DNA of 64,000 bases from positions 248,001 through 312,000 of the forward strand of contig QPGO01000051.1 in assembly GCA_008632985.1 (NCBI GenBank), read 5' to 3'. A program made the position numbers and the translations under genes. Origin of the DNA: Psammoneis japonica (lineage: Eukaryota). A model generated the notes under the pieces. That model was given only the letters and a program-made list of their open reading frames with translations, did no database searches and was not told the DNA's origin. This document shows, in pieces, positions 28,401 through 64,000 of the stretch; the stretch's first letter is position 1, and the number at the start of each line of letters is the position of its first letter.

Positions 28401-31300
28401 TGCTGGGGCTGCTGAAATGGGGCACAGACGCGTTCCAGGTCTAGGTGGGACCTCGCACTACTGAACTGTGACATCGATAGTTTTTTGAATCACGTCGTAT
28501 GTCGCGCACGTAGATTTCTACGTGATTTTTTTGACATTTTGTGTCATTTTACGGTACACTTATTGAGCGATCCGTCCAACAACTTTTGACATTTTTTGTT
28601 ACAGCGCGATTCTATAATGTCTTAAGAATCGCGTAGGGCAGGTGCATTTGCAAAAACGTCGAGTGGTAAGAGGCATAATTGTACCACAAACTTGGCCGTT
28701 TATTTGATGTTGAAGATAAATGTATGCATTAATTAAATTCTCGTACTACGGAGCTCGCACGTAGAATTCTACGGGCCCAATGTCACACGGAGTCCCACCT
28801 AGGGCTGGAACGCGTCCACAAAACTGCTGACACAAGCTCCCTTGTGTCCTTCCTTTCACATGGCTGTCCACAAAAGCAAGCCAGCCATGGCACCACTCAC
28901 AAGTGCACCAGCAGGCACTGGTCCAGCAGCATCATGCCACTCAGGTGTGCCCAACAGCAGCTGGTGGGTGCCGTTGACAATGTCGCCTCAGAAGCCATGT
29001 TGGAAGCACATTTCTTTCTCAACTTGGCAGAGGACAATGAACAAGCCATCACCCCACCCACCATCCAAAAGATGGCCAAGGCTTTGCAGCTGGATGTGGC
29101 TGCACACCAACCAACTTGCCTCTGCACTTGTCTTGTCAAAGCATGCACAGAGGAGCAGACAGCACTGTGGATCCCTGCTCCAAGCCTTGCAAAGTTTTGC
29201 ACGAGAAGCAGGCAGTTGTTGACAAAGATGTGAAAAAAGCCATTTCCAAAATTGCGCCAGCACTCCAAGGCCGTTGGTTGGAGAACCTCTCATGCATCAA
29301 AGCCACTTTCAAGACCTTTGCTTGGTGTGCTGACAAAGGGTTGCCATTTGGCGCAGATCTGTTGAATGACAAATGCATTGTTTGGCTGGCGCAAATCATC
29401 TCACATTGCTCAGGCTCCCTTTCTTCCCTCTGAGCAATGCCAGAGTTTCACAAAGAGCAAACTGCCAAGCAGTGGAGACCCACTTGCACCAAAGGAAAAT
29501 GAAGCAGTTTGTGCAAGTGTGTCTTCATGGCCAACAGTGTTTTCAGGCAAAGAGATGCCCCAATGTTGTTGCACTTGCAGGAGCTCCAAAGATTGGAGGT
29601 CAATCATGCTGTCATGATCTTGCCATTGGCCAGCCATGCCAGCTGTGCAGCTGACCAACATGTTCCCCAATGCACTGAAGATGCAGCAAGAACAGCACAA
29701 AAATCAGCTGGGTGTTTGTGGCCTGAACAGTGCTGGGTGCTGGGGGGCCTTGGGGCATTTTTGAGCCAAAATGCCATCTTCTTGCAGGGTGCATCTTGCC
29801 CAGAAAGAAAGCCTGGGAAGCTGCAAATTGCAGCATGCATGCAGACAAAAGGTCATTTTTGTCACGCCCTTTGTGACATTTAAAGGCTGCAACACATCGC
29901 CGCGACACATTGACTCTTGTTGGCAGCTGCATGTTGCGCTCCTCCCCATGTGTCACGCGTCCATGCGGCTCTTTACTGACGTGCACTGACACTGCACAGT
30001 TTTGGCAGAACAGTGTGGGTGTGTGCGAAGGAACACACAGAACTGCACAGAGTTTTGCGCGTTCGACAGTGATCAACGTTGCTGCGGACAACTCCCACTC
30101 AGGGTTTCGAACCCCTGGCCTCCTGCCCAATGGTTGCGATGAACCACTCCGCTGTGAATTCACAACGCAGCATGCGTGCAGACAAAAGGTTGTTTTTGTC
30201 ATGCCCTTTGTGACATTTAAAGGCTGCAACACGTCGCCGTGATGCGCCTGACTCTTGTTGGCAGCTGTGCACTGCAAAATGGATCAAACATGTGCATGGC
30301 ATGCAGCAGTGCATCTCTGGCAACAACCAAGTCGCGCATGCTTTGGCAAAAAAAGGCACGCGTGAAAGCCTTGATGCACTGTGAGCGATGGAGGACAATC
30401 ATCTGTGTGGAAAGCAGTTGGCGCAGCATTTGAAAAAAGCAACAAATGTGCAGAAGTGTTTTGTCTTGAGGATCAAAGAAACAAGACAAGAAAAATGTGA
30501 GAATGTCTTGGGAGCAAAATTGCACAGAGAAAAAGCGTGACCAGCTGGGGCAACATCGCCAAGAAAAGAGCCACCATGATGGTGACAGCACTTCCAATTA
30601 AAGGCAAAATGGAGTGTCATGCCTTGCACCACCCTTGGCATCTTCATCATGTTGCAAGCGCCTGTTGCTCCAAAGTGCCGTGGCAGGTTGGCACTGTGAG
30701 CAGCAGGCAGTCAAACACAATTTCGTTCACAGCATTCCCAACAAACCATCTCTGCCATTGGCGCATGCCATTCAGCAAGGAAATGAAATGCTCTGCTCAG
30801 TTTGGACAAGGAAATCAGTGTTTTTTCATCTTTTTCTCAACCCTTCACTGTCTCTCTTGTCTTCCACTGTGTTTTGGTGCTGATTTGTCACTGGAAATTT
30901 GAAATGGGATGGCTCAAAGGTGGCACACCCATGCTTGGAATCCACTTTTGGGATGGTGATTTGTGTCTAGAAGGTGCTGAGCCAAAGGTGGGAGCCATTG
31001 GAGGCATTTGCAGATGAATCATCTATTGTAAATGAGATGGGGCCAAAGTGGTGCAGTCTGTTCCTCTGCTCGTTGCAAGCTTTCTCTGGAAAGGCACCCT
31101 CTGCCCCCCATTGGCAAGAGAGCTCGGATCCGCTAATTCTTTTACTGAAGACATTGTGCCAGGTCAAACTGCATGATGCACAAGAAAGACATGATGAAGC
31201 TTCGTCTGATGGCTCGACTCCCTTGAAGGAGCTTTCCAGTTGAACAGACAAATCAGGTGAAGCCGTGGAGCGGTGTCTTGCGGAGTGGACCGTGAAGGGA
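25448..31300. mobile_element. Composite TpA-depleted repeat block between the two Lhcx genes; left part may be a Crypton/tyrosine-recombinase N-terminal remnant
   Basis: Very few TA outside the MITE; frameshifted TEDGYKTAVAAFDVF...LMRQFYAF...HWKPKSQAQCGSG segment; internal ~100-bp duplications (27180-27281/27801-27903; 29830-29929/30167-30267). Confidence 0.55.
28427..28816. mobile_element. MITE copy 1 (390 bp, ~25-bp TIRs, 4-bp TSD CACA)
   Basis: gacgcgttccaggtctaggtgggac ... gtcccacctagggctggaacgcgtc, flanked by caca on both sides; homologous to 50418-50813; retains many TA. Confidence 0.9.
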
Positions 31301-31557: not shown

Positions 31558-32277
31558 CTAAGGAAACTGGACGGGGAGGGTAGACGGGTCGAAACGGTCA
31601 GTAGCGAGACCCAAGTTCACAAAGATTTCCTCCCCATTGACGAGCTCCTGTGCTACCATGCCGGCAATACCAAGCATGGCAAGACGGCCGTTCTGCAACT
31701 CCTTGGTAGACATCTCCAGGAATTCTTCGGGGTCCTCGGGTTTGAGCCCAAGAGGGTCAAAACCAACGTCACCAGGGTAGTAGTCTTCCTTGAGAGTTCT
31801 GCCAGTTCCCAAGACGTTGCCAGGATTCTCCCATCCTTCGATAGCTCGGTTGAACTCGAGACCTCCAATCACCAATGCCAGAAGCTCGAAGAAGAACGGC
31901 GATACTGCTCGAACCTCATCAAGGTGGCGGATCGCCGGGCCGATGTCTTTGTTCCAGGCTTCAAAGAGAGGGTGATACTCAATGGGCTCCTCCGTGACGA
32001 GCAAGCCGATGGCAGCCAACATGGCAACGCGGCCATGCTGCGTCTCAGCCTCGCGGTAGTTCTTCATCGTCTCGAGATCGCAATCGGTCGCAAAGCCAAA
32101 AGGATCAAAGTCCTCGACCGGAGGGAGGGAACCTGGGAGGCCCCAAGCGAACTTGCTTCCATCCGGCACCCATCCGTTGAGCTCCGCGTTGAGAGAAGTG
32201 GAAGACTTGGATACCGTGGAAGGGGCAAAGGCAGCGGCGGAACCGGCAAGGGCGAGGACGGAGGCAGCAAACTTCAT
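31558..32277 (-). CDS. LHCX: Second, divergent Lhcx-family light-harvesting protein
   Basis: Same presequence; FDPFGF, REAETQHGRVAMLA, GPAIRHL, YYPGDVGFDPLGLKP, KELQNGRLAML. Confidence 0.88.
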   Translation of the reverse strand: MKFAASVLALAGSAAAFAPSTVSKSSTSLNAELNGWVPDGSKFAWGLPGSLPPVEDFDPFGFATDCDLETMKNYREAETQHGRVAMLAAIGLLVTEEPIEYHPLFEAWNKDIGPAIRHLDEVRAVSPFFFELLALVIGGLEFNRAIEGWENPGNVLGTGRTLKEDYYPGDVGFDPLGLKPEDPEEFLEMSTKELQNGRLAMLGIAGMVAQELVNGEEIFVNLGLATDRFDPSTLPVQFP

Positions 32278-44245: not shown

Positions 44246-44691
44246 GGATTCGATGATGTGAGATGCCGATCCGCATCCGACAAAAGTCCTAGACTGCCAG
44301 CCCAAGAACCACTGAGAAGAACCTTGGCATTGGAATGCTTGGGAGTCTCATGGAGTGGAGCTCTCGGCAACACTCTACTCCGCACAAGGGGGGTTGGGCA
44401 AAACCCACACCCTCCGCAGGGTCTCGAGTAAAACTCGAGGGCTCGTGATCAGGAACCTCTAGGATCTGCTCATGGCGCTTCCAGTCGAGACCAGTGGGAG
44501 GTGCCTCCGGCATTTCGCAACGTCGGAACCCCACACCAGATGAATCTCAGACTTGGAATCGAAGATGATGCCCGATGCTGTTCCTGTGACTTCGTAGCTG
44601 ATGCGTCGTCTAAAGCAGATCGTCAAGGAACCTGGTCCAGACTTTGCAGGTAGACTCCCGTGGTCCAACAGTGAAGTTGAGCGCAAAATCC
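44246..44691 (-). repeat. Split direct repeat B2
   Basis: ~445-bp copy of 44963-45407. Confidence 0.95.
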
Positions 44692-44710
44692 AGGGAGTGG
44701 TGGGTGGGTG

Positions 44711-44959
44711 CAAAAAATCGCTTTTCCAATGCTTTGGAATGATCCAGTCACGTTGATCAGGGTTCCTGTCTCAACAAAGATGGAAAAGTGAGAGCAACAA
44801 AACGCTGACAGGTTTGACCGGTCTCCGTGACCAGTCATCTTGGAGACCAGTCATCTTGGGCCAGAAGTGCCCGCTTCTGGAAGAGGCACAAGTCTTGGGA
44901 CATTTTCCGATGAAAGGTCTTGCATCGCACTGTTCGTCTCCATCTAAACTTGGGTGCGA
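44711..44959 (-). repeat. Split direct repeat A2
   Basis: Copy of 53531-53763 with a 16-bp internal duplication. Confidence 0.95.
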
Positions 44960-44962
44960 GGA

Positions 44963-45407
44963 GGATTCGATGATGTGAGATGCCGATCCGCATCCGACAA
45001 AAGTCCAGACTGCCAGCCCAAGAACCACTGAGAAGAACCTTGGCATTGGAATGCTTGGGAGTCTCATGGAGCAGAGCTCTCGGCAACACTCTGCTCCGCA
45101 CAAGGGGGGTTGGGCAAAACCCATGCCCTCCGCAGGGTCTCGAGCAAAACTCGAGGGCTCACGATCAGGAACCTCTAGGATCCACTCATGGCGCTTCCAG
45201 TTGAGACCAGTGGGAGGCACCTCCGGCATTTCGCAACGTCGGAACCCCATGCTAGATGAATCTCAGACTTGGAATCGAAGATGACGCCCGACGCTGTTCC
45301 TGTGACTTCACAGCTGATGCGTCGTCTAAAGCAGATCATCAAGGAACCTGGTCCAGACTTTACAGGCAGACTCCCGTGGTCTGACAGTAAAGTTGAGCGC
45401 AAAATCC
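44963..45407 (-). repeat. Split direct repeat B1
   Basis: Copy of 44246-44691. Confidence 0.95.
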
Positions 45408-45493
45408 CCCCCGATGAGAACTCCCAGGTGGTGGCCACCTGAAAAAAGAAATCTTGAGATCCAACGAAGAAGAGGCAGGTGGTGAAGCTTGTC

Positions 45494-47024
45494 TCACATT
45501 TCCTGTGTGCATCTCAGGAAAGAGGGAAGGAGGAGAGAGATGTTGGCACAGTGTTGCCTCATCTTGTGTGAGGGCCGAGCGGCCCCAGCTCGCTCCTTCC
45601 TTTTCCATTGATTCACTGCATCGATGTCGTCTTCCGACACACTCTGGGAAACAGCTCGCGAGTCAGACCCACGATGGAACGATCGGCTCACATCGCACTT
45701 CTCTTGATGTCGCCATGAGAAGTGATGTCGGCACCAAACAGAGCCGGGTGGTCGTTGAACAGTTCACCCAGAACAAGATGGAGAAGGGTGTTCAACTCCC
45801 AAGTGGTTGCAACCTTCCCTCCAGGGTCTGATGCAGCCGGCCCTCTAGCACGTCCTTTCGAAGCTTGCAAGGACACAACAGCTCGGGTCCATCCACGGAT
45901 CTGATGCCGGAACCTGTCACATTTACGCTTGGCAGAAGGTGCTGCCGCTCACCGTGTTCTCCCCCAACTCGTCGAGCAAAGGGATCACAACACACGAGTT
46001 GTGGAGTGGGAGGTGTTCCCGCAACGCCCCCAAATGATGAGCAATCCCTCTGGCCCACAAAGGGACAGGGTGAAGCTCACTGCAAAACAGAAGCCCCCGG
46101 CCAGAAACCCAAACCGATCCCCGGCGTTTGTGGCTTGAAGAAACTTGTCTTCAAGCCTTGGCAGCAGATGTTGCACAATTTGAACAGAAATTGCCCTGTC
46201 CGGCCTCCAATCCTGGCCCATTTGTCTCTTGCATCCAGTCACAAACCTTTGAAACCACAAGGAGGCACACGGGTCCTCGCATGTCTGAAGGTGTTGCTTG
46301 CCTTCAAGATCCGCCAACGCAAGGGCCCGAGAGTTGGCGGAGGCTGATGCCCTGACCTGGTTTGAGCAAGCTGTTCGAAGCTTCCTGACGGTGTCAAACT
46401 GGGAGTGCGAGCCTGAACAGTGACCGGGGGGTGTGATGCCAAGACTGTCTGCATTGCCACCTCATGTCCACAGTGATCATGCGGAGGCAAGGGGCCTGGT
46501 TCCAGATGAGGGCCATGAAGACCAAGACGATCCAACAGGGCCAATCCCTGAGCCACCTTGGACGCGTTGTTCTCCACAGTGGAACTTTCTCTGCTCCAGA
46601 ATGCACCCAAATTGATCTGCCTGATGCAAGCCAATGCCACCTCATCACGTGGAGAAGTCGGGATAGGGTCTCTGCGATGCAACTCATGAAAAATGCAAGT
46701 GTCGCACTTGAAAGCCACCATTGGATGGTCCCCAGCACGAGCTTGGAAGAACTTGTTCCTGTCCTGGGGCTTTCGAAACCAAATGTTGTCTTCAATTTGC
46801 GCCGCATCCTCACCTGGCTGGGCCCCGTCATCGTTTTGATGGTCGTCCGGGAGAATCCCGCCCAAGTGAAGGTGACGCTTGCGCTCGAAGCATGACACCC
46901 TGGACACCACGCTCTGCGACACGGAGGCCAACCTCGGACACTGTGCACAAAATTTGCGCAAAATGTCCCTCGCGTCCACTTCAGCCTCCTCCCACACTTT
47001 TGCAACGCCCGGTCCATGGAGCAC
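45494..47024 (-). pseudogene. Tyrosine recombinase of the retrotransposon (frameshifted, catalytic residues mutated)
   Basis: AFWSRESSTV; SLCGPEG (expected SLRGxE); SRSFHRGS...VNQW...MRQHC (expected RSxRRG...W...HY). Confidence 0.8.
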
Positions 47025-47063
47025 ATCTTTGGTGTCCCTCGGAGCTGCTGCGGACTGTGAGAG

Positions 47064-50061
47064 ATGAAGGGGAAAACAAGACCGATGAGCAAAGGTTCGA
47101 ACATTTCTTCAGGCCAGAACGCCCCAGCTCCCGCCGGCACCAGAAAGACGAGGTCCGCTGCCTCACACAATTGTTTCTGCCACTCCGGAGTCATTGGGTG
47201 CGGACAGACAAAAATGTGGAACGATTTCTGGCGCTTGAGGTGGGCAATGCAGAGTTCTTCGAGAGCCGTTCTAGCCGCGGCGGGCGGTGGGGCCCAGACC
47301 CAAGTGCCTGACCGGAACACTGGCATCTCAACCGCTTCGCAGGGCGGGCAGTGCCACTCAGATGTGTCGCGGCCCTTCTGGAACCAATCGACAGGAGAAA
47401 GGAGTTCGGCCGTCAGTGATCCCACCCAGGAATGGATCCAATCGAACAGCAGAGGTGCCCGCTCAGTCGCTGCCAAGTGCAAAGGAACAAACGAGAGCAT
47501 CTTGGCCCCATTCAAGACCCCTTCCACAAGATGCCTCGAAAACCCCATCTGTGCCTTGGGCTGTCATGCGTTTGCCCGAGACATGAACCAAGTGGAGAAT
47601 GAACCCGCACTTGGCCTCGAGCACCCGCAACCGTGTCACCTGCTCCAGGAGTTTCAGATTCGACGAGGTTTTTGTAGACTGCAATCTCTGAGACTGAGTT
47701 GTCAGTGAAAAAGCAGAGAGTGGTGCCATCCATTTCCCCCCGACTCAGCCAGCTCCTGGACTGCATCGATTGTGCTCGAAAGTTCCTTCCAATTTGAAGA
47801 ATTGGATTGATCATCGTCGCCCCAGATCCCAATCCGAAACACGATCGCCCCGTCCTTAGTCTGGACGGATGAACCAAGGCCCTTCCCAGACGCATCAGCG
47901 AATCCGCACAGGACCACCACAACCTTGGAGGAGCAGACAATTCCAGCAGCAGGCTCATCCGGTTCCACAATCCGTCGCAAAGCCCGCAAGTCAGAGAACA
48001 ACTGAGGCACTGCACGCACGGTCTCGGGGTGCTTGCCGTCCCGAAGGTTCTCACCAAGCTCACACGGATCAGCACTGAGCTTGTCGGCCTTGTGATGGAT
48101 CCATGCTGTGCACTCCTCATCTGACACAGCCCACCCATCCGCCTTTCGGTTTGGGCGCCAACTGTCCAGTGTCAGGTGAATCCCTTTGAGGAAGGGCATC
48201 AAAAAGGGGCAAGTCATGGCGGCATGGACAAGAAACCCACGCTTTCGTTCGAGGTCCTTAAAGTTGCACTCGGGAGGCCGAGTCATCCATTCCATCGCAT
48301 GACTTAGAAGGGACTCAATCATGCCCTTGCCCTTGTCCCACTTGGCCTGTGAAAGAGATTGGGTGACATTGCGGGCAAGCACGCGGAAAATGGCACCAGC
48401 CCAGGCACCCATCTCCTGCTGGGATGGGGGCTGAACTTTGCGCGGGGCGTTCTGGAGTCCAAGACACTGAAGCCTGGCAGCCATCTGATGTGCCACTTGC
48501 CACGCCTCTTCTTCACTGGCTCCCATGCCTGCAAGTCATCTGCGAAGGTTTTGATGTCTCCAGCGATGATCTTCAGGATGGAGTTCCATTTGATCATGAG
48601 TGGGTCTTGAACCTTGCAACTGGGATCCCCTGGGAGGTTAAAAAGAACTTTGTCAAAGCCCGCGGGGTTCCCCGGACGGCTGGGATCCCCTCGGGCCACT
48701 TCGTCAGCCCAATGATGCGTCTGCACCGCGTTGCAAGGGCTGGGCTTCATTCCCATAAACAGACGGTTCCAACGCTCCATGCCAACAGGAGATTCAGTCG
48801 GCAAGGGCCGTGGGAGGTGGTTGCGGAGCGGAGTGAGATCAACACCGGCAAAGGGTCGAATCCGTGGGTCCATGAAAAAATTGAGAAACATGTCCCCCAG
48901 ATCCAAATCAACAGAGAAAGTTGATTCGGTCATGCACCCTAACACCGACGCTGCAGTTGGAAGGAAGAAAGAAGGAGCCCAGAGAGCGTCGTTTAGACCG
49001 GATGAAGTGCCGTTGTGCACCATCCGGATGTCCTCGACTGCTTCCTCCATCCTCCCGTCAGACCTCGGGACCAAAGACACAGCCTCAGGGACCCAGAAAC
49101 AGTCTGCAAGACTCGAAACTGGAGCACGCTCAATGCATCCATGGTCCCGGACCTTCTGGATTTTGGTTGCCATGCGCTGCACTTCGTTTGCAGAGCCGCA
49201 AACCCGTTGCCACTTGCGGTTCCTGGGTGGCGTGCCTCTTGCGAAAATCGGAAGACCATCGCGTGCTCCCTGGCGTTGCTCAGGCGAGGGCCTGCGCCAG
49301 AAGAAAAGAGAAGAGCCCCGGCCCCAGCTCCACCAGGAACTTGGCAAAGTTTGAGTTAGAACGTCAGTGCCAAGATTCCCGTCCAACAGTGACGCTGGGA
49401 GTGGTGGGTCTCGATGCAAGCCCCCCTGATGACTCAACAGAGAGTCCCCAAACCATTGTCGCAAGCGCAGCAGCTGAGGAACCCATTCCCACCCGTGGCA
49501 TCGACTCATGTGCCCCAAGAACGAGCGAGTCAAACGGCGGTGCCACCACCAAAGAGCCATCACACGCAAAGCTGGAAGGACAGGCCCAAACATGGGAAAC
49601 AAAAGCGCAATCCGCTTGTCCCATGGACGAAAAGGCGGCAATGCCGAATCCCCTTTTGCCGCCTTGGCAGTGACAAGGGACAGGTTGATCCATTCGTGAG
49701 GCAAATGCCGACCAAGCCGAGGCAGCCAAGTGGCCACAGCCGGCTCAATGGCAGGTTCCGAAGGACCCAAAGATGGGTCGAGGACCGCCGGCCGGGTGCT
49801 GGTGGAGCGCTGCTCAATGACGTGGTCAATGACCGAGGCAAGTAGATTCAGTGGGATCAACTGACTCCACACCTCCCCAGAGAGCAAATCCATCATCTCC
49901 CTTGTCCGGAATCGAAGTGGGAAATCCCACGCAGCCAGGAGTTCGTCGTCACTCAACTCCCTGAGGATCCACCCCGCATGGGACCGGTGAGACTGATGTG
50001 ACACTGGCCGGTGAGTGACTTGTGGGCTCACACGATCGCCCTCCCTGTGACACACCCCCAA
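47064..50061 (-). pseudogene. Reverse transcriptase + RNase H + MT-like region of the retrotransposon
   Basis: DIRMVHNGT, DLDLGDMFLNF, MGMKPSPC, FADD; RNase H CGFADASG...SSNWKEL...FFTDN; WVWAPPP...FVCP...W segment. Confidence 0.85.
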
Positions 50062-50417
50062 AGGTTCTGAGGGGCACGGCTGTCCCGCCAGTTTGCAGTC
50101 AATGATGTGGCCAATCGTGCAACACAGGCCCCCCCTGAACTCTGGGAGAGAGCCCCCGACACAGAAAAGGGTCGTTCAAAAGGACGTGACGCCGCCAACC
50201 ACTGAATGGGGTGGGCCAACGTGACACAAGTGCTGAAGCCCTTTCAAGCCACGTCTTGACATCTTGCCGACCGGGGCCAAGTGCATCGGAACATTGCACT
50301 CCAATCGAGAGATCCTCTCCAAGCATGCCGGGTCCCCAGACACCAGTGCCACATCGCCAGCAGGCGCCAAATTGCCAATCCCTGAGAATGGCATGCGTTG
50401 AAGAGATGCACCCTTCT

Positions 50418-50813
50418 GGCGTGTTCCAGCTCTAGGTGGGACCTCGCACTGCTGAACTGTGACATGATTGTTTTTTGTCATCCGTCGCATGTTTCGCACG
50501 TGCATTTCTACGTGTTCTATCATAAAAAATTGTTCCACACTGCCTGTTTTGCGAAGCCAAAGGCTTTCTGTTGTCTGCACTCATGTCAACAAAAATGTGC
50601 TGGGTGTGTTCTTTAATGTCTAAAGAACATGCCCGGGCATGCTGTAAAGAATGTGCTTCAAGTGTGGAGGAGGAGATGCGTTCGCAAAATTGCCTCTTTT
50701 TCTGTTGGCGATCATTCATGCATGCATTGCTCAACAATTTTACTGCGGAGCTCGCACGTAGAATTCTGCGGGCCCAATGTCACAAAAAGTCCCACCCAGG
50801 ACTGGAACCCGTC
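50418..50813. mobile_element. MITE copy 2 nested in the retrotransposon
   Basis: ggcgtgttccagctctaggtgggac ... gtcccacccaggactggaacccgtc; flanks ttct/tcct; homologous to 28427-28816. Confidence 0.88.
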
Positions 50814-51037
50814 TCCTGACCCTCGCAGAGGTGGATGACAGCACACTCCAACAGGGTGGGAGGATCGTTCACACAACACAATGCGACACGAGGCCACTCA
50901 GATGGCCTTGACGCCAGGAGCCAAATGGGGGGGGCGGTGGAAATGATCAAGCAAGACCCATGGAACAAAAACAATTTGCGACCGCGGATGACAAGCCCCA
51001 CATTTTCGAACACAGGTGAGTCCACCCCCTCCGAGTT

Positions 51038-53215
51038 TCATTTCTTGGATTCTATCGCTTTCAGACACCCATTGACCTCTTTGAGTTCCGTTTTCAGTTT
51101 GTTCACCTCCTGGTGCGCCGTGTCAGCTCTGGCCTGTGCCGACTTGGCTTCGGTTCCAGCATTTTTTGCCTTTTCCGTCAGCATTGTCACTGCAGCTTGC
51201 AATGCAGTGACAGCTTCAAAGCCGGAGTTCGTAGCCAGAAATTTCACATGCTCCGATGCCATGGAGGGGTGGTCCCTGAAGTTGTGAGCTGTGTGCTCGG
51301 CCACAATGTCGTGAGACCGAAAAATTGCCCAAAGAATCTGGCTGCACACAGCATCCAGATCTGTCCCCTCGACAGACGTGAAGATGCCGGAGCGAACCTG
51401 ATTGAGATCATCGAAGATTCTGTGCACCAATTTCGAAGTCAAGGACCACGCCTGCTTTTGAGAGAACTTGCTCAGTTGCACCAGGTTCTTGCAAGTTTCA
51501 TCCACAAACTGAATCAAACCCCGAATAAATGCTGCTGACTTCGACAGGGCATCTCGAACCACCTGGCCTTCAAACGACCCCCCCGGGATTCGCTGAGCGA
51601 TGTCGTTCAAAATGTTTCGCTCGATCGTCCCAATTTTATCCATGATAAAATGCTTGGTCCCTGTTGAGCCAGTGGACCAGTGATCATGGGAGGCCATCTT
51701 GTCCAAGAACGACGGGTGAAGGCCCGCCGACTGCGCTCCTTTTGCCGAGCCCGAATCCAAAATTCTCGGCATGCCATGCTGAAAACTCGCCAGAGTCCTT
51801 GCATCCTCCTCCGTGCTGATCTTTGGGTCCATGCGCTTAGCCAGACCAGCCAAAAAATGGTGCAAAGCCGCTGGTTCCGTGCCCGCGATTCGATCCAACA
51901 ACAAATTTGCATCTGTAAGGCAGCCATGCACCCTGGAGGAAAAATGTTGTGCCACCCATGCTTGACATTCTCCAAAAGACGAGACACCGACCCCAGAGAA
52001 CTTGACAGCCGAAGTGTCTGACTTGGACTTCAACTCGTTCACCGCTTGGCTCAGATCCCGCATCTGTCGGTCCACGGAGCTCGAGCTTCCGACTCCTGTA
52101 AACCCCAATCCGCTGCCAGATCCAATCGCGCCTCCAAACGAGGCTCCCGCATTTTCAAGATTCTGAACTCTGCCAATCAACTGGTTGCAAACTTCAAGCA
52201 TGACTGTCCTCAGAGAGTCCATGTCACGCTCAGCTGCCAACCCAGAAATTTTGTTTTGCAAGTTCTGGATGGCGGCACTCACATTTGATGCCAGTCCATT
52301 GGAGCCGGCACGAACATTCGACTCCTGTGCCAAATCTACGGACAAGTCTCTGGGAGGGCACTCGGGTGAGCCGACTGTTGACAGACCAGCAAGTGTTCCC
52401 CAAATCGCAGGGGCTTCCACTTGCTGATCGAATTCCGGTGGAGGAGAACCGAGGGTTGCATCCAGCTGCTCCAACTTGCGGCTGAGGACGCTGACTGAGG
52501 AGTTCGATTCCTTGAAGTGCGCACATGCCTTGTTGCCCATCTCCACCACCGTGTTGCCGGTCTCCGTCAAGTTTCTTTCCAGGGACTGAACAACTCTAGC
52601 CAGGGCCGCAGGACTTTTGTTCGCGGCCAGAAATTGCGCCAGGGTGGTGGAAATCACCCGCTGGTGGGGTGTGAAGTGTCCGAAAAGTGCCCCAGGAAAT
52701 TCCTCGCTGCGGGGATCTTTGCCCTTCACCAGCGTCTTGTAAGCCGCAGCGACTTTGTGCTCCTTCAAAGACGCCCCACATTCTTCCTCCGTAGGACAGC
52801 GAGTGTCGCTGTTCCCGAGAGCCAGAAACTTCTGATGCCACCCTGCCAAAGTGTCGGTGTTCCCTTCCCACCTAACCAGCACCTCCGCCAAGACAAACGA
52901 GCCGTCCAAAGTGGGCTGGCAAAAAGCCGTGTCTGGTGTCTTGAGAATCGACACCATGCCGTCCGAAGGAATGACCTTCTTCGAGCCCTTGTGTTTCACC
53001 TTGCAATCCCCAGCTTTCTTGAAACAGAACGTGGCTCCACCCCCGACAACCCCAAGGCAACGGGAGTTGTCGGCACCTTCGATCCAGGTGACATGAAAAC
53101 GAGGTGCATCAGACGAAGGAGACGTGCCTTCCTCCATCGAGCCAGATGCACCTCGAGCCGCTCCCTCATCCTCCACTGCGAAAAAATCAACGCGGGGAGC
53201 GCCGTGATTTGACAT
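51038..53215 (-). CDS. ORF1 (gag-like, coiled-coil) of the YR retrotransposon
   Basis: Long open frame directly after A1; C-terminal coiled coil; only one Tyr in the 732-aa track ORF. Confidence 0.7.
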   Translation of the reverse strand: MSNHGAPRVDFFAVEDEGAARGASGSMEEGTSPSSDAPRFHVTWIEGADNSRCLGVVGGGATFCFKKAGDCKVKHKGSKKVIPSDGMVSILKTPDTAFCQPTLDGSFVLAEVLVRWEGNTDTLAGWHQKFLALGNSDTRCPTEEECGASLKEHKVAAAYKTLVKGKDPRSEEFPGALFGHFTPHQRVISTTLAQFLAANKSPAALARVVQSLERNLTETGNTVVEMGNKACAHFKESNSSVSVLSRKLEQLDATLGSPPPEFDQQVEAPAIWGTLAGLSTVGSPECPPRDLSVDLAQESNVRAGSNGLASNVSAAIQNLQNKISGLAAERDMDSLRTVMLEVCNQLIGRVQNLENAGASFGGAIGSGSGLGFTGVGSSSSVDRQMRDLSQAVNELKSKSDTSAVKFSGVGVSSFGECQAWVAQHFSSRVHGCLTDANLLLDRIAGTEPAALHHFLAGLAKRMDPKISTEEDARTLASFQHGMPRILDSGSAKGAQSAGLHPSFLDKMASHDHWSTGSTGTKHFIMDKIGTIERNILNDIAQRIPGGSFEGQVVRDALSKSAAFIRGLIQFVDETCKNLVQLSKFSQKQAWSLTSKLVHRIFDDLNQVRSGIFTSVEGTDLDAVCSQILWAIFRSHDIVAEHTAHNFRDHPSMASEHVKFLATNSGFEAVTALQAAVTMLTEKAKNAGTEAKSAQARADTAHQEVNKLKTELKEVNGCLKAIESKK

Positions 53216-53530
53216 GCTTTCTGCCCTCGAGAGCAAGGCATCGAATGCAGAATCTGGGTCAGGGGAAATGACTTCCCCAATTCCGCACGCTCAATGTCCG
53301 AATGTCCCATGTCGCCAGTCATTTCTTCAAGATTTGAGCCCCCAAGAGAGGGGCTCAAGCCTTCAACACCCCCCTGATGACCCACCGCAGAGGGTGGGGC
53401 CCGAGAAGCAGGCGACGCGGGAGACTGCACCAAAAAAGGAGAAATGACATTGGACTCTCACGTTGACGAAGGCACCATCATCGATGCCAGAGGAGAAGCA
53501 GTCGGACATGGTCGGGAGAGGGAGAGGGAG

Positions 53531-53763
53531 CAAAAAATCGCTTTTCCAATGCTTTGGAATGATCCAGTCAAGTTGATCAGGGTTCCTGTCTCAACAAAGA
53601 TGGAAAAGTGAGAGCAATAAAACGCCGATAGGTTTGACCGGTCTCCGTGACCAGTCATCTTGGGCCAGAAGTACCCGCTTCTGGAAGAGGCATAAGTCTT
53701 AGGACATTTTCCGATGAGAGGTCTTGCATCGCACGGTTCGTCTCCATCTAAACTTGGGTACGA
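53531..53763 (-). repeat. Split direct repeat A1 (5' end of the element; retains its TA dinucleotides)
   Basis: Copy of 44711-44959. Confidence 0.95.
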
Positions 53764-53995: not shown

Positions 53996-55630
53996 ATGAG
54001 AAATGGGGATCGGTTGAATGCAAGTGATGCTAAGCGACCACTGACACGGCGACACTCTGTTGGCATCGTCTGGTCAGGGTTCGCCCTTGCTTTCCTTGTA
54101 GCCGATACCTTTCTTTCTTCCATGTCGATGCAAGAGCTCAAATCGGTCCTAACCTACCAGGAATCCCATTCGGCACTTGTTGAACAAACGGTAGAGTTGC
54201 AAGCAAACGATCCATTTCCTCGGTGGGGTGATTCCAGAGGAATTGACATTGAAGCGATTGTAGCATTCTTCAAAACGTGGAGGTCAAAGACCAACAAGAA
54301 TCTGGATTTTCTGGATCCTCATGACACGTATCCTATTGGAAACACCGTCGTATTGTTTGGCCCACCCACAGACCCCAATGAAAGCAATTCTAGTAGTGAA
54401 GAAACAGATCCAAAGGCTTGGGTAGAAATCTCCGCAAAAATTACTCGACAACTCATCCCAAACAGACTAGTTCCAGGAGAAAAACTGCTTGTTGATGCAC
54501 TGGAGATGCTCCGTAAGTCCGTTTCTCTCAAATGGAGTAGACTCAAGCAGGTTGCACTGAGGTCTGGGCTGCCAATCATTATCAACTATGCAGACTATCG
54601 AGGATGCAGCAAGGAAAATCTCCTTTTCAATGGAACTACCTACAGTGTTCCAATCTTTTCCCTTTGTTCTGCATTCAAGGCAGAATCGTGCAATTACACA
54701 TTTCCATTACCGTCATATTTCGCTATTGAGCATGCAATGGGCAGTCCCGACGAGTGGGATAATGTTTTTAGACAACAAGATTTAAAGTACCATTGGGAAA
54801 ACAAGACGAAACTAGCGGTATGGAGAGGAACGAATACGGGGTTTCCCAGTCAGAAGGACTGTCTTCGCTATAGAATGGTCCAAGAAGCATCCAAATACCA
54901 AGACCAACTTTTTGACGTTGCATACGCCGTAAGATGGGCAGGAGCGAACGTTCGTCGTTCCCGGATTCCCTTTGAGGACTTTCAAAACTACAGAGCAATA
55001 CTTGACGTGGACGGGAACTCGTGGTCAGGTCGATTTGTCAAGCTTCTGTCAATGAATTCTGTCGTACTAAAGGTGGAGCCGGAGTTTACTGATTTCTTTA
55101 TGCCACAGCTTCAACCTTGGGTTCACTACGTACCAGTACGGGCCGACTTGTCTGATCTTGCTAATATTACAAAGTTCGTCCTGGCAGATGAGAATGCACC
55201 AAAAATGAGGGAAATTGTTCAGAACGCACGCGATTGGTCCAGAGATTTTTCTGTCTACAACAATGTGGTGGAATCGATCCTCTCCATCTTGTCTTTTTAC
55301 GTGGAACTGCTTGACAGGAATAATCCTCATTGGGAAGACGTGTGGCGAAGAAACCTGCCACATCTAGTGAAGCCGGGGTTGAATTGGGTTGCGATTCGTT
55401 CGACCAAGGGACGAGAGATCATTAATTGTGGATGCCCTCAAACTTGTAACAAGGACGCACGAAGCAAAAAGAGGAACAATCTTCCCTTTACTTGCCAGCA
55501 ACGTGTCCACTACATGATGTCCACACATGGAATGTCTCAAAATGCATCGTGTATCCATGCAAGCAATCCAGATTCTGGTGCGTGTGGGCCCGAGTGCGAC
55601 CCTAACCTCTGCACAGCAACACAAACTTGA
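53996..55630 (+). CDS. Glycosyltransferase family 90 (CAP10/POGLUT-like) with C-terminal Cys-rich domain
   Basis: N-terminal TM segment; AVWRGTNTG, YRAILDVDGNSWSGRF, LQPWVHYVPV..DLSDL. Confidence 0.9.
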   Translation: MRNGDRLNASDAKRPLTRRHSVGIVWSGFALAFLVADTFLSSMSMQELKSVLTYQESHSALVEQTVELQANDPFPRWGDSRGIDIEAIVAFFKTWRSKTNKNLDFLDPHDTYPIGNTVVLFGPPTDPNESNSSSEETDPKAWVEISAKITRQLIPNRLVPGEKLLVDALEMLRKSVSLKWSRLKQVALRSGLPIIINYADYRGCSKENLLFNGTTYSVPIFSLCSAFKAESCNYTFPLPSYFAIEHAMGSPDEWDNVFRQQDLKYHWENKTKLAVWRGTNTGFPSQKDCLRYRMVQEASKYQDQLFDVAYAVRWAGANVRRSRIPFEDFQNYRAILDVDGNSWSGRFVKLLSMNSVVLKVEPEFTDFFMPQLQPWVHYVPVRADLSDLANITKFVLADENAPKMREIVQNARDWSRDFSVYNNVVESILSILSFYVELLDRNNPHWEDVWRRNLPHLVKPGLNWVAIRSTKGREIINCGCPQTCNKDARSKKRNNLPFTCQQRVHYMMSTHGMSQNASCIHASNPDSGACGPECDPNLCTATQT

Positions 55631-55795
55631 CGCAGGACGTAGCCTACAAACTAGTTCAGTCGGCGAGAGTTGTAGCATACACATAATTTTCAGTCGGCAA
55701 GAGTCGAGAGGGTGGTGACTGTCGACGTCTACAATAAAATGTGTTTTACAAATTAGTAACGAAGCAAAGTAAACCTAAGATTCAGAACCGCACTA

Positions 55796-56928
55796 CTACT
55801 CAATGCTAGCATCGTAGTAGAAAAGAGGAAGATAAACCCATTGACCAATGCTGTTGGCTTCACAGATCATTGCCCCGTCGAGTTCATGGTCGCCCACCTG
55901 TGCTGGCATAGATGCAGCCGTTGCTGTTCTCCTCTGGCTGCTCAAGTTCTGAGCGCGTCGAAACCGAGCGAGTTCTGCCTGACATCGAGAGGCGTCCTTG
56001 GCCACCTGAACGAGAACTTCGCCAAGGACAGAGGGGTGCTGGAGCTTGATAGTGGCAACATCATCCACATTGACATTGTTCCAGTTTTCAACAAGCACTT
56101 GAATGCAGCGCTTCTGGAGGGAAGTCTGACTGGTGTGGCTTGGTTCAACGATTTTGCGTTCAGCATCCAACAGGCGAATGGCTGCATCTTGATGAACTTG
56201 TGGCAAGACACCTTGGGCTGTCAGGCCATTGAAACTGGCAGCGTCCATTTCAACGTTTTGAAACAATTCTGAAAGAAGACAACTCATGTGACGGCTCGAT
56301 TCTCTCCCCTGGGGCATTCCTCTCAGCAACAAAAGCCAAAAGTCCGGATCATTGACATGCACAATCCGAGAGGAGGTGTCAATGTCTAGAATGTTTTCCT
56401 TGAACATTCCGAGAGCAGCGTTCAATGCCTTTTCTTCATTCAAAGCCTTTGCATGTTCAATGCATGCACCGCATGTGTTGCTGCTGATGTCTTGAGTCCA
56501 GAACTTCTTGGTCTTCCAACGCAAATGTTGAATGCCAAAATGCTGAGAGAGGTGGCAAAGCGATGTGGCATTCTGAGTGTCAATGTCAAGAGCATCATCA
56601 GCAGCATGGATGTGATCCAACAAAGCAGGAAAGGCTTTCGCAGCAAGCTCTGGTGGCTCAATCTTGCTCGTCTGAGTTTGCTGTTCAGCAAACTCATTTT
56701 GAAAGAGCGAGCAGTGACAATCGCTCTTTCTTGCTCCCACGACAAGCACAATCTCATGCACATGGCAGTCCTTGCTTTTCAGTTCGTCGGACGAACAGTC
56801 CTTGCAGCTTGTCTGCACGCACCAGTCACTCAGACTCTGTTCCGGGTCAATCCTCCAGCTCAGTTCGGGGTGTTCTGGTTCTTGGTCAGAATCGAAAGCA
56901 TCCTGAACCGCGTCCGGGTCATTCGCAT
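55796..56928 (-). pseudogene. Diatom-type BTB/POZ-domain gene eroded by TpA mutation
   Basis: LSWRIDPEQSLSDW...CHVHEIVLVVG...AFPALLDHIH...LCHLSQHFGI; Tyr occurs only in the last 14 codons. Confidence 0.75.
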
Positions 56929-57006
56929 GCTGTTGTTTGCTGCGGCAACTGTCCCTTGAAGATCAACGAGACATTGCCACCAAAATGATCCACTCCAATC
57001 CGACCA

Positions 57007-60000
57007 TGGAAATGAGCTAGATGACAGCATGAGCTGGGGCAACAACCATCTAAAGCAGATGTGTGTCAACAGCGACCACTGTCAAAGAGATTCTGATCCT
57101 CGTGAAAGTCAAAATCCGCAAGAAGTGAGAGAGAGCTTCAAACCAAAAGTCTGAAGAGAGCAAAGAAGATGCCGGTTTGGCACTGGATTCCACGAGAAAG
57201 GAAGTGGATCGGACAACCCAGGAACCAAAAGGCCATCAATGGACCAAACCACTCAATGAGAAAAACCCAACAGTCCTCAATCAGACAAAGAAGCCAAACG
57301 CTCATGAAAGTCAAGACAGTGAAGTCCCATGCGAGACCTGCCAACTCCCGTGTGTGACCAACCCACGTCATAGATCAGAAACCGCAACTCTCGTTGCTTG
57401 CTCTCCCTCTCGAGAAGACGTCGACTGCAAGACGTCAGATCGCCATTGAAAAAAATTCAAACGAAGTTCGCACCAAAACACAACCCATCATGCAATGATG
57501 CGACACCACATGCAGAGATGTGACAACCCCAGTCATCACACCTGATTGCCATCACCCTTTTCATGTGCAACACATGCATTCAAACTTGAATCAACATGTG
57601 CACAAAGTGAGTCCACCAGCTGCCTGCCACCTCATCAACTTCTTCCGCAAATGCCAAACTTTTCCTGAACCAAACCCTTTGCAAAGATGTCTGCCAACTG
57701 TTCCTCACAAGCAATCTTTTGAATGTAAATCAAAGAGTCAGGCCTTGCAATGCGAGACACCTGAAGAAATGACACTTGACCGCGACATGCTTGGCACGAG
57801 AAGTCATCTTCGGCATCGTGGCCAGCGTCAAAGCACTGTTGTTGTCCTCAAAAATGGCAGAATGGAGCAACATTTCATCATCCCAATCAATGCTCATTGA
57901 AGAAGAAACTTCCTTGATGAGTCTTTTCATGGGCAGCAGGACTCTCATCACCTGAGACAAGAGGTGACATGCTCCACCTCGAGCACAGACAAAGCAATCT
58001 TGGTCTGCAGCTTGGAAGCCCATGTCAAGGGGTTGCTGCCAATGGTCAACAAGCAACCAGACCAACTCTTGACACACACACAGAATCCTGTGGGTCCTCA
58101 TGGTTCCAAAGCCCAGTGAAATCCATGTCACAACAACAATCCAACCTTGAGTCATCGAAGACGTCACAGCAAAAATGACACTGCGATCCTTTGTGCCTTG
58201 AAGATGCCTGGCAATCCACTTGGCAGCTTCCTCATGGCTCTTCTTGGGATTGTGCATGAACCCAACACAGCTGCAAACCACATTTTGAATGTTGGGCCTG
58301 GCACTGGAAGCCAGATGGAGCATCACACCAATGGCACTTGCACAGCTCCACGATTCAACTCGTTTGGATCCGTCGGCATCGGTGGCCAAAGGAGATGAGC
58401 TGGCAGGAGTCTTCTTGACATGACAATCCTCCACATTTGCAGCAGCAATGATCTTCTTGACAAGACCCTTTTGAGTGAGATGAGCAGTTCCAGCCTCATC
58501 ATCCCCATCATTGTCAACGCCAAGAAAGTCATTTGCATCGTCAGAAACATCAAGTTCATGACTGCTGGTCTTGAGCTCACTCACGATGTCATCGATTCTC
58601 ACAAGATCCTTCACAAAGAATGAACAATCATCAACATGTGCAAGGCAAACAACATCTTTGCCGATGAACAAACAAGGGTCGCTCTCACCAGAGTGCAATC
58701 CAACCTCTTCCAGACCCTTGGACAGGTGCTGGAACCATGCAGTCACTGCTTGGCGCAAGCCGCAAAGGCTCTTGTTTAGCTTCAGTGTGCAGTCTCCCTC
58801 ATGTTTCATCTCAAAGAGCTTGGGTGATTCAACACAAACACCCCTTCAAGAATGTCTGCCTGAGCAAAAGCGAGGGCATGATCCACTTGACGTGACACCA
58901 ATCCACACAGGTTCGACAGACTCATGAGCAATGAGCAACCACACTGAACCATGCTCTGCTGGACCACCGGAGCATCCGTCGGGGCATCTCTTGATTTTAA
59001 ATGCCCAAGTGCCAGTCAAAACATTGCATTTGATGGCGCCGACTCGCGCAGCACGGAGCAAATGAATTTTGTTGCGTTGGGTCATTGATTTCAGATTGCA
59101 TGGCCTTCTTGAACTCTTCTGCATGCACCCTGCCATTGCTTCATGATGTAAAGGGGGGCACCAGGATCGCGAGTCTTCTTGCTTGCAAAAGAATCCAACA
59201 GGCAGGGTGACAATGGACATGCTGAATTGACACCATCACCATCGAGATCAGCGAACATTGCACGCATCTTTGCAAATTCCACTGTTCTGCAACCAGACTT
59301 GAGCCAACAAGTTAAGTTGGAGATGAAAGAGGCCGCGCCTTTAAGAGCATGCCCATCACAACCATGGTGTTTGTCGGAACCTTCACAACCATGACAATCT
59401 GGAGGATGAATGGTTCTTCCAGAGCATGTCCAAACCGGAGTTGGGTCACTTGGAGCTTCTTGGAAATGGCCGTCATTGTTGACAATCAAAGGCATTTCTT
59501 GAGATCTTGGGATTCTTGAGTCTCCCTCTGGAGGCTCGGACACATCAGCTGGAGCCAAAGGAGACTCAATGCTCAGAGGAGCAACTTCGTCATGAATGAA
59601 ATTGGGAGAGGACAGAGAAAAAATGCCCCTGACAGATTAATTTTGACCCCTCACAGATCAGTCGTAAAATGGGAATCCACGACTAAAACAACATGCACCG
59701 CTTCGCCACTTCTGCATCCCAGAATTTAGAAAAACAGTTTTGCACGGTCAGGGTTGGGGTTTTGCATGGTCAGGGTTGGTTTTTGGGGTTTAGGTTGGGG
59801 GGCAGGGAGTGGGACTTTTGGCAAACTCCAGTTTGTGAATGAGCAAGATTCCACAAAAAAAGTCAATCTATGACAGGACCGAGCCAATCTGTGAGGAGTT
59901 GGCACCCAAGGACAGAAGACCTGGCAAAACATCTTCAGAACATGGAACACTTGACCATCTGGGAGTGGCAGAACATCCTTGGGAAGAAGACGGCACCCTT

Positions 60001-63000
60001 GGAGATCTGGGCATTCTTTCCCTCTGTTCCGTTGGTGCTGACCTGTGCTCATCGTTGCCTTCACAACTCTTCCTGTTGGCACGTTGATCACATGATTTCT
60101 CAGCAGCAAGCCAATCATCTGACAATGGAGGCAATTCTAAACCATCATCAGCATCCACATGATTTCTCAAAGCAGTGAAAAGATCCAGCCAGTTGCGTGG
60201 TGGCATCCGTTCATCATCCAAGTGAACCACCTCAAACCAATTGTCACAAACAACAACATGGAGTTGAGGCAACACAGAACCACTCTTGAGATTCTGCATT
60301 GAACCAATGTTGCTCGCATGGTCAGGCAAATGACCCACAAACTGTCCCCTGCAGCTTCAGGCTTTCCAATGAATCATTTTCTTGCCATCTTGCAATGTTG
60401 GATCCAACACGTGGGTCGGGCATCCCCAAACAGCCAAATTTGTGAGGGTTGATTTTGAAGAAACTTTCACTCCCATGAAGACTTCTTTGGGACATGATCT
60501 GTTGAAATCCATTTGTGGGGTCAAGTTCCATGAGTGGACAGAATGACTCATGGCCATGGGCCACAAATCCATCTCTGCTGCATCTGGCCATTGAACTGCT
60601 GCAGCATGAAACACCACAGATCTTGCACATGTTGCTTGCTTGGCAATGGCGTTCTGATGGTGCGCACCTTTCTCCTTGAGTTCCATGAGGAATTCTTTGC
60701 TCACAAAAATCCTGTCATCCAATTGACATGCTTGGACAGAGACACCAGCAGAAGCAGCCTCCCTCTTGAAACTGATTTTGCTCTTGACAGTCTCGAAGGC
60801 ACTGGACAAAACTTGATGATGAACTGACACCTTGCCAGATGCAGTGTCAACAAAAACAGTTCTGCCGCCACATTTGTCTGCCTCTTTGGTCTTCCCATGG
60901 GATTTGAACAGACGACCTTGAACAGAGGATGCACGCTGGCCTGCAGCAACAAGTTGTCCAGGATGAAGAATGTCAGTCTTGAGAGATTGATCCCAGCTGG
61001 GAACCTTTTCAGCCCACACAGCTCCGGTCAGACGAGGAGTCATTTGACCATGTTGACATGCAGCGCACTTGGGATTTTTGACAGCAGTGGAGCTGATGGT
61101 TCTTGCAGCATGCTGAACATTCAATGTGATCAAAGCCAAGATGACCAAGGCAAAAGTGCCACTGCAAAAGTCTCTTTTTTGCTTCTGAAACAAATTTTGG
61201 TTGAATTCATCCATCACACACACGTGTGGATGCATTTCTTCTGGTTCGCTGCTGAAAAAGGATTCCTTCCAATCGCAGCAGGGAGCCTGTCAGTTTCATG
61301 ACAAGGCACAGCAACAGTGCCACCGTCACACCAATGAAAGAAAGCGAGGTCCTTGGAGGTGTTGACATTGAGGAGCCTGCAGCCCAAGCTGCTGCCACAT
61401 TTGTCGTCCCCACAATGAGCAACACTCAACAACTTCACAGGAGAAGTCGGAATGCAAAAGCACTCTGTGCGGACATGTTGTTCACGTCCGGCATCATCAA
61501 ATGCCATCCATTCAACAACACCCACACCCTCTGACGACATCAACATGACCTCCAACATGAAGGAAGTGGCTCAGTTTGTCAAATGTTTGAAAGTTTCAAA
61601 GGTGCAAAGTCTTCCTTGTCAAAGGCAGAAGTTGCGTTGGCCCCAGAATTGAACAAGATCTTGAGTTGCTTGTCGTGAGGGGACAAAAAGGACATCGGAA
61701 GATGGCTGACTTGTTCCCTCAAATCAACATTCACAAAATGGTGCGCGAGCATGCACGATGCAACATTTGGAAGTTGGAAGGTCCGAATCATGGTTTGTGA
61801 TCTCGTGAATCGATTTGTCACAACAATGATGACAACACTTGAAATCAAAATCTGGCACTTGATCATGCAGATGCTTGATTTCTTGAAGAGTCATGTGACG
61901 TTTCTTGGAAGAGCTTGGCCACAGAGCTGGGTAAATCCCAACAAACATCAAAATGATCACCAACACATGAATCAATTGATGATGGAATGTTGAACAAAAT
62001 GTTGTCCGTTGAGCCTTCTGGAACAACTGTGGCTCAGTTGAGACTTCAGGATTGGGCAGCTCCTTCTTCTTGGGCATCTCCACATCATGTTGGACAAATC
62101 CTGGCATCCATTGGAATGCACATGGATGACATTTGCAGACTGCAAAGCAGAGCATCACAAAAGACCACATGGATGTCATGCTGCATGCCGACAAAATGCA
62201 CAAGGCTTCTGGATGCACTTCCAATGCCACTCGGATCTGAATCTTCTTTTGCATCAGTTTCCCTCTGATGATTGGTTTTAAATGGGACAGGACTCTTTGT
62301 GAATGACAAACCAACAATCCACTGGCCCATTGGTTCAACAAGTTGCACACCAAAGCACAGCCCATGAAGATCCGATTCGATGCACTCTGGGCCAAAGTGC
62401 ACTCTTGAGAGGCTTGGGCAGTGCCAGAACCTTGCACAGAAGCATCCCAAGATGTCATTGGCATTGGAAGTGCAACTCTTGGATTGGCTTTGAGCAGCAG
62501 CAGTGGCACTCTGAGTGTTTGCATCGGCAGCTCCCTCTGGAGCTGAATGATTGGCAGTTTCATGAGTGGCCCAGCACCCACATCTGCCACACCAATGCTT
62601 GGTCACACCATTGGAGACTCAAGCATGAGATTCTCCATGTCTCAGAGGAATCTCACAAGGATCCCTTTGAGTTCAAGCAGCCTGGCATGGCCAGCAATTG
62701 CAGCAATCGCCACGACCACAACCACCTCCACCCCAATCTCCATGACCACCACCACGTCCACCATGGCCTGGGTTTCCACATCCACTGCCACCACCTTGAC
62801 TGTTGTTGTTCCGGGGTTGAGGGCAGCTTGGATGGATGTGGCCTCATTGACCACAGTTGCAGCAAACACAATTGTCTGCGCAGTTTAGAGAAGTGGCAAA
62901 TCTGGACTTGCCTGCATTTGAAGAAGTTCATTCTTCACAATCATCCACCAAACTTGTGTGTGACTTGTTTGCATGCACAGTGAGATTGCCGTGCATGCAT

Positions 63001-64000
63001 CTCATCAAATCCACATCAACTTTGTTGAAAGAGAGTCACAAATTGAATCTAAAATGACTCGAGAACTGTTGATGTTGCAAGACCACTGCAAATGATCAAA
63101 GCAGCATCTTCGGGAAGCTTGTGATGGCCTTCTTGGCATCTGCACAATTCAACAACCTTTGCAGCACAGTTCTTGACATTCTCTCCTGGCTCTTCCTTGA
63201 GTTTCACAGCCTTGAGTTTGTCCACCACCATGCACAGAGCCCACTCAGTTGATGAATGCAACTTGTTGGCAGTGACAAGCTTGCAGACAACGGGCCCATG
63301 CGTGGGTCCACCAATGTGCTTCTGGGTGTCACCGTGTGGGGTGACAACCAACCAAGTTTAGAAAGAACTGTTTGGGCCAAAGCAAGTTTTGATGATCACA
63401 TTGGCCACCCATTGTGAGCGACTCTTGCAGATCCGACAAGCTGCAATCCATCACGAGATTCAACTCTTGAGGTGCCCCAGTCCTCGGGTCTCTCCTCTGG
63501 ATGCAGAGCGCGGAATCCGTGCCACTCATGAGAACACATTTGCCAACAGAGTTGGTCCAACTGATGAGAGTCACCTTGCAATCCTTGCCAGTGTCAATCT
63601 TTGACTCCAAGCCTTTGTGACAGCAAGAGACAATTGTTGTTGTGTGACAGAATGACATCGGACGTTGACATCTAGGTCCACAAGCCATGGCATGTGGACC
63701 AGTGATTCTCGGACCATCGGTCCAAGTGATGTGCCTCAAGAAGTGGAGAAGTGACCTTGAGATTGATCCCCAAACTTGGCACTTGAATCATCTGACGTGT
63801 CATTGTTGCCAAACAAACTGGCGTCATGCCGACAAGAGTGTTTCTTGATCCTCCAGAACAATCACTCATTTCGGAGAATCAGAGGTCTTGCTTCATGTCA
63901 ATTTGCAGACCAGTCAATTCAAAGCAATGACAACACTTGGGCTCACAACCACGGAAGTGAGCTAGATGACAGCATGAGCTGGGGCAACAACAACTGTCCA
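57007..64000 (-). mobile_element. Ty1/Copia (CoDi-like) LTR retrotransposon, degenerate; 5' LTR runs off the window
   Basis: Order gag, PR (61214-61558), IN (60357-61235, GAHHQN, WGCP..VLDP), RT/RH (57730-59220, SLCGLRQA, HVDD, KHVAVKCHFFR); LTR-end match 57003-57046 vs 63948-63991. Confidence 0.9.
63938..63950 (-). other. Primer-binding site, half-tRNA-iMet type (mutated)
   Basis: Minus strand GGTTGTGAGCCCA next to the LTR end; the Ty5/copia-type PBS is GGTTATG(A/G)GCCC. Confidence 0.65.

Follow-up and report, generated by a model that had tools for sequence, protein, structure and literature searches.

TpA depletion across a Copia element and an adjacent host BTB gene in Psammoneis japonica

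Why should a single-copy host gene show the same loss of TA dinucleotides as the transposon beside it, and what decides where that loss ends? The question is raised by a window of 64,000 nucleotides in which two types of zone alternate, one with ~40 TA/kb and the other with 1-5 TA/kb, such that the TpA frequency in the stripped zones is 0.10 of that in the normal zones. The last TA-poor zone runs from 55834 past the end of the window and covers a minus-strand BTB gene together with a Copia element (Table 1). The overall observation made in the initial annotation, that a host gene shares the mutational state of the adjoining LTR up to an edge, is confirmed as real and well supported.

A stripped BTB gene between a GT90 gene and a Copia element

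The proposed BTB identity is borne out by a match to PF00651 (E 1.1e-5), and the gene has both the BTB domain and the C-terminal P-x-F/Y-Y-Y motif of this algal family. The peptides KDCHVH, LLDHIH, and LCHLSQHFGI, cited as places where expected tyrosines read C or H, are all present in the translation, which contains no frameshift. The position of the start had to be revised: it had been put ~80 bp from the LTR and the gene drawn to 57007, which is the LTR edge and not a start, whereas the likely ATG lies 33 bp from that edge, at the same place as the aligned ATG of a paralogous copy on contig C49. The in-frame TGA at codon 4 makes this gene a pseudogene; the next in-frame Met is found far downstream of it.

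Table 1. Positions of the principal features within the window
Feature	Positions	Strand	Remarks
Multicopy repeat	25153-27182		first 300 bp, adjoining LHC gene, keep TA
Outer terminal repeat of neighbouring split-repeat element	53526-53763		TA kept from 53618
GT90 (glycosyltransferase family 90) gene, intact, TA-normal	53996-55630	+	85% duplicate on C176 stripped
TA-retaining 3' flank of GT90 (putative 3' UTR)	55631-55833	+	overlaps BTB tail
BTB/POZ host gene, pseudogenised	55796-56974	-	likely ATG 56974; 388 codons open after early stop
Spared BTB tail, family PLFYY motif	55796-55835	-	5 TA kept
TpA-stripped single-copy DNA	55834-57006		3 TA left
In-frame TGA, codon 4	56963-56965	-	CpG transition would be the simplest origin
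Copia 3' LTR	57007-57400	-	polypurine tract next, on inner side
Copia internal region, broken, TA- and CG-depleted	57401-63951	-	RVT_2 match 57733-58845
Copia 5' LTR, part	63952-64000	-	continues to G000:C52:312569

The 1173 bp between the spared tail and the LTR would be expected to contain ~41 TA (Poisson P ~2e-14 at 35/kb), and those that remain stand in slow contexts (two of the ATAG/CTAT class and one CTAG). In a short-read contig that spans 55247-56668, 4 letters differ from the window and none of these differences yields a TA, so the loss is no long-read artefact; as the run possibly comes from the assembled sample, this agreement speaks to the platform and not to an independent strain. 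The read depth of this contig is 54, compared with 52 for unique GT90 sequence, as expected of single-copy DNA, and no Copia-free allele was seen in the short-read data. CG density is 40/kb compared with 50-67 CG/kb in intact paralogues, and the CpG observed/expected ratio is 0.64 in the gene versus 0.36 in Copia. Across 87 conserved columns, TA or CG transitions account for 7 changes in the gene and leave 11 others, compared with 1 and 16, respectively, in its intact sister. With so few other lesions, the gene is best read as recently dead, its TpA loss being far ahead of ordinary decay.

Within the genome, a protein search with the BTB gene returned 16 matches, its nearest DNA relatives being 66-73% identical over part of its length. 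In a six-protein tree, it pairs with the intact copy beyond the other end of Copia (99/98 support), as would be expected if insertions had split a tandem pair. This sister gene (C52:313775-314692) has the same orientation and is reached from the 5' LTR across a 73-bp spacer and another repeat. A candidate broken paralogue on C436 was rejected, as it is instead a 98.8-99.7% duplicate of the sister-gene region that differs mostly by single-base indels; it was treated as a haplotig with errors and left out of comparisons. The last base of the C436 contig (G000:C436:22825) corresponds to the TA edge next to the sister gene (L015:1569), perhaps by chance. The 5' LTR itself holds an insert with palindromic ends (L015:671-936) that has a relative on C49. 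No target-site duplication is recognisable at the Copia ends, so that insertion at exactly this site is presumptive.

Outside the genome, a single-sequence homologue search gave 3446 candidates, none at E<=0.001, and a five-sequence profile recovered 33 homologues whose identity of ~25-34% makes them too distant for DNA comparison. At the five family tyrosine columns that read C or H in the stripped gene, Tyr is found in 32, 30, 33, 22, and 31 of these 33 sequences; the homologues therefore retain Tyr, where a shared His/Cys had been named as grounds for abandoning the claim. In two more columns where half or more of the homologues carry Tyr, the gene has I and L, which are not TpA products.

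Transitions are TpA-specific on both strands

None of the 10 TA common to two intact paralogues is kept in the BTB gene (4 TG, 5 CA, 1 CG), whereas a third intact paralogue, used as the control, keeps 8 of 11 (P=0.001). Of the shared CG, 7/14 have turned to TG or CA. The intact GT90 gene and its stripped duplicate offer a larger sample, in which 65 TA are reduced to 9 kept, with 31 now CA and 17 TG. A>G changes in this pair occur at 50/125 sites after T, compared with 14/262 after A, 14/229 after C, and 17/221 after G, or 40% versus 5-8% (50/125 vs 45/712 for the other contexts combined, P=7e-21), where the background counts include ordinary divergence between the copies. Their frequency at TAC/TAT is about double that at TAA/TAG, and C>T at CpG amounts to 35/130 (27%). 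The transitions are TpA-specific and fall on both strands, as seen in the TG and CA products.

Polymerase-eta A:T mutagenesis has a WA motif. A signature of this type was considered and rejected: ApA is not raised, the rate of A>G after A being at background, which argues against it. CG>TG/CA, the product of 5-methylcytosine decay at CpG, is found in the same zones, but this decay cannot yield TA>TG/CA, and it has removed only part of the CpG in places where almost all TpA is gone. At 44246-53763, TA is stripped with CG still at 50/kb, which indicates that TpA loss is ahead of CpG loss. This stretch consists of split direct repeats on the minus strand in the order A-ORFs-B-A-B and is presumably an Ngaro-type element, a label given by the repeat order.

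Borders of the stripped zones

The edge beside the GT90 gene had been described as sharp. It is real and falls within the reading frame, the spared tail being in frame with the stripped part, but it can be placed only between 55834 and ~55990 (about 150 bp), the nearest conserved lost site being at 55984. Part of its sharpness is illusory because the Tyr-Tyr tail of the family is TA-rich anyway: the last 42 nt contain 5 TA in the BTB gene and 4, 5, and 5 in intact paralogues, which have 0-2 TA in each of the four preceding bins. A step at 55836 gives the best fit, logistic ramps with a scale of <=50 bp are about as good, and the data exclude ramps of >=200 bp (delta logL about >=5.8). TA counts show no gradient within the gene, being 1, 1, 0, 0, and 0 per 200 bp from 56000 to 56999.

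Elsewhere in the window, TA recovery had been reported at about 1378, 25460, 31320, and 53600, and two-state segmentation agrees closely (1378, 25455, 31324, and 53618). Of these edges, 25455 and 53618 are real yet lie inside transposon ends, the reverse of spreading. The outer terminal repeat at the second has an inner twin (44706-44959) that lost 6/7 TA; at the first, comparison of the multicopy repeat with 12 copies shows 6/7 shared TA kept in the 300 bp near the LHC gene and, beyond, 8/55 kept and 47 converted. Three window edges are 176, 203, and 234 bp beyond a stop codon. The island at 25.4-31.3 kb is flanked by LHC paralogues (24208-24840 and 31558-32277), both TA-normal. Inside it, a high-copy 390-bp repeat at 28422-28820 (97-99% identical copies) has full TA; it probably inserted not long ago and could serve for dating. 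A stripped relative of greater age is found at 50420-50813. Pfam named 1/50 ORFs from the TA-poor zones of the window.

At other loci, we observe borders that follow neither homology nor the ends of elements. On C9, an LTR of the same family stands on the 5' side of a duplicated histidine-phosphatase gene, ahead of its matched part. One 86% duplicated segment there has 4 TA kept and 26 converted near the LTR and 48 kept and 6 converted beyond 460430 (P=5e-12). A stretch of 1.26 kb on C39, for which no second copy was found, has been stripped to within ~50 bp of the next intact ORF. The LTR sits at the 5' end of the victim in the window, on C9, and on C39, where it is 50 bp from an unassigned ORF with no Pfam, Atlas, or paralogue match. 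In each of three pairs at 85-86% identity (GT90, the C105 BTB pair, and C9), a single copy is affected; for the C105 BTB pair, 5 TA are kept and 33 converted. Where stripped islands on C52, C23, C105, and C161 adjoin intact BTB genes, these genes have been spared; all stripped host genes whose frame was checked are broken or truncated. The distance between an edge and the closest long ORF is 600-700 bp in some cases (C254 and the sister BTB gene). The uniqueness of flanks was assessed at 4 LTR ends, namely both sides in the window, C39, and C9, the window's other side being mostly repeat. Read-through from the 3' LTR was rejected as a guide, since the C9 victim is beside the 5' LTR and is itself directed away from it. 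Homology is neither required nor sufficient, and the borders do not coincide with element boundaries; they appear to be set by neighbouring intact genes, not by homology or distance from the LTR.

Three further stretches were noted. A 19-kb stripped island with GT10- and GT90-type genes (G000:C176:9363-28502), between TA-normal FUT8-like and GT47 genes, is a glycosyltransferase cluster of which part has been engulfed. On C49, a stripped island of 18 kb (noted at G000:C49:222.4-223.6 kb) contains a BTB fragment at 224181-224557 and an ORF at 213573-214196 (L077:4573-5196) with a weak coatomer-beta match. Finally, L111 (G000:C68:406536-412493) is a less-stripped element with 9.6 TA/kb, 48.6 CG/kb, and frames of 1443 and 542 codons beside an LTR, and is an intermediate stage of the stripping process.

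Possible origins of the stripped domain

The closest known system is that of Bigelowiella natans, for which a preprint describes TpA hypermutation of integrated NCLDV and virophage DNA, proposes adenine deamination with an ADAT2-like candidate, and reports that some lines, but not others, have an ongoing rate exceeding the background ~1000-fold (Mettrop et al., bioRxiv 10.64898/2026.01.13.699255). In both cases, A>G and T>C are confined to TpA on both strands, the process is regional, spares ordinary genes, and can act on single-copy DNA; transposon domains are also enriched among TpA-poor coding sequences in B. natans. The two differ in that our organism belongs to a different supergroup (it is probably a diatom-like stramenopile, to judge by the BTB gene family, the LHC genes, and one truncated source label), its end state is near-saturated, host genes are hit, and borders are resolved to ~150 bp, while activity was measured in B. 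natans and only a sequence end state is read here. The text of the preprint does not discuss borders, flanks, spread, diatoms, or host-gene spill-over, although host genes may be dealt with in its supplements. In ascomycetes, the leakage of RIP (PMC3105345, PMC9453070) is a functional analogue, as a transposon-directed point mutator there overruns adjacent single-copy genes, but RIP is C>T, creates TpA, is triggered by duplication, and affects both copies, whereas here TpA is destroyed, one duplicate is affected, and edges ignore homology. The locus therefore fails RIP's defining tests of TpA direction and of restriction to both copies and their homology. When heterochromatin spreads from a retrotransposon into low-copy flanking DNA (PMC3521669, PMC3183085), the transposon likewise imposes a state on its flank; that state consists of epigenetic marks, whereas the change here is permanent and in the DNA. 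Transposon methylation in Phaeodactylum is DNMT5-dependent (PMC9998398). In the openly accessible literature, we found no report of TpA stripping in diatoms, and no look-alike stretch was found among the other genomes examined.

With moderate confidence, we favour an explanation in which a gene cut from its promoter was absorbed into a silenced domain and stripped up to the next active transcription unit. By inserting 33 bp ahead of the start of one tandem BTB copy, Copia would have separated that copy from its promoter, and the silent gene would have become part of the transposon's silenced domain. There, a DNA-level mutator, of which we see the end state, would turn A:T to G:C at TpA on both strands faster than CpG decays. 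The domain would fill the non-transcribed interval and halt at the next active unit; the observed stop lies ~200-350 bp beyond the GT90 stop codon, and the last BTB codons, probably overlapping the GT90 3' UTR, may have escaped because the domain ends there. The host gene would thus be struck for its location, most likely after silencing, although the order of silencing and mutation is unreadable from one genome. Location over homology is indicated by the spared GT90 gene and its stripped 85% duplicate, the C9 edge within homology, and the C39 flank without a copy. The likeliest chemistry may be adenine deamination by a candidate TadA/ADAT-type enzyme drawn to silent chromatin, as proposed for B. 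natans. The genome has zinc deaminase genes on C38 and C26, which are putatively TadA-like and ADAT2-like by their motifs; they are ordinary genes, and nothing ties them, or the 27 genomic matches to PF00145 (cytosine methyltransferase), to the stripping. The lack of a target-site duplication and of a Copia-free allele, the similar overhang lengths, and the edges 600-700 bp from ORFs count against this explanation. Of the heterochromatin-like bordered domain suggested initially, a domain-wide process that extends into unique host DNA and ends close to intact genes stands, and heterochromatin itself is a plausible reading of it. As for collateral damage to host genes, a host gene is indeed stripped, but outward travel from the LTR or harm to a working gene does not follow, there being no gradient in the gene.

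Such outward travel, with a limited reach of ~1.2 kb that kills a working gene, is unlikely but has points in its favour: overhangs into non-transposon DNA at three copies of one LTR family are 1173 bp (window), 1151 bp (C9), and 1262 bp (C39), the gene has lost less of its CpG than Copia has, and other lesions are few. Against this, other overhangs are about 50, 270, 600, and 1000 bp, stripping on C105 extends ~1.8 kb from the nearest repeat found, the gene has no TA gradient, and transposon ends near genes are spared, as are intact BTB genes beside islands. It seems improbable that the borders instead reflect selection, with a mutator acting broadly around transposons and changes in the promoters and UTRs of neighbours being purged. 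Edges do lie near intact genes and the spared zones include plausible UTRs, but 145-300 bp of transposon-derived DNA is also spared with most TA kept, and single transitions there should be mostly neutral.

We give equally little credence to the stripping of any untranscribed DNA, where the transposon would matter only by removing a promoter. All checked victims are broken, and the main target in B. natans is described as a transcriptionally silent single-copy region (Mettrop et al.), but an apparently broken BTB copy at C52:151 kb, with frameshifts and stops, some of whose indels are maybe assembly errors, keeps 43 TA/kb in a 10-kb stretch without a stripped island. Leakage into flanks from a homology-triggered, RIP-like process is largely refuted and very improbable. 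The victims come from duplicated families and RIP can overrun single-copy genes (PMC3105345), but only one copy per 85-86% pair is affected, the homologous segment on C9 is crossed by the edge, no copy of the C39 flank was found, the BTB gene has only distant and partial relatives at the DNA level, and the direction of mutation is opposite. That the BTB gene was mutated as cargo of a larger mobile element, a possibility the initial annotation had itself raised, is hardly credible: the stripped C49 island does contain a related BTB fragment, but the gene lies outside the LTR pair at single-copy depth, its sister is an intact tandem neighbour in the same orientation across Copia, and its reading frame continues from the stripped part into the spared tail.

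Returning to the promoter-cut gene in a silenced domain, a broader version is more doubtful, though far from implausible: chromatin-guided adenine editing may saturate TpA in silenced domains of any sequence or copy number, be fenced by active units, and routinely convert host genes cut from their promoters. If the preferred explanation is true, the GT90 transcript should end near 55830-55990 with silencing marks ending there, in a lineage that is amenable to genetics. For annotators, the process carries a warning: because it removes TAA and TAG and turns Tyr to His/Cys, dead genes keep long open frames and pass as intact. The B. natans preprint, in its text, leaves target choice open, and the present locus and its sister insertions separate the options, suggesting a mutation process whose targets are defined by where they lie in silenced DNA and do not depend on sequence repetition. 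Should the chromatin-guided reading be true, the genome would be a permanent map, at ~100-bp resolution, of past silent-domain borders.
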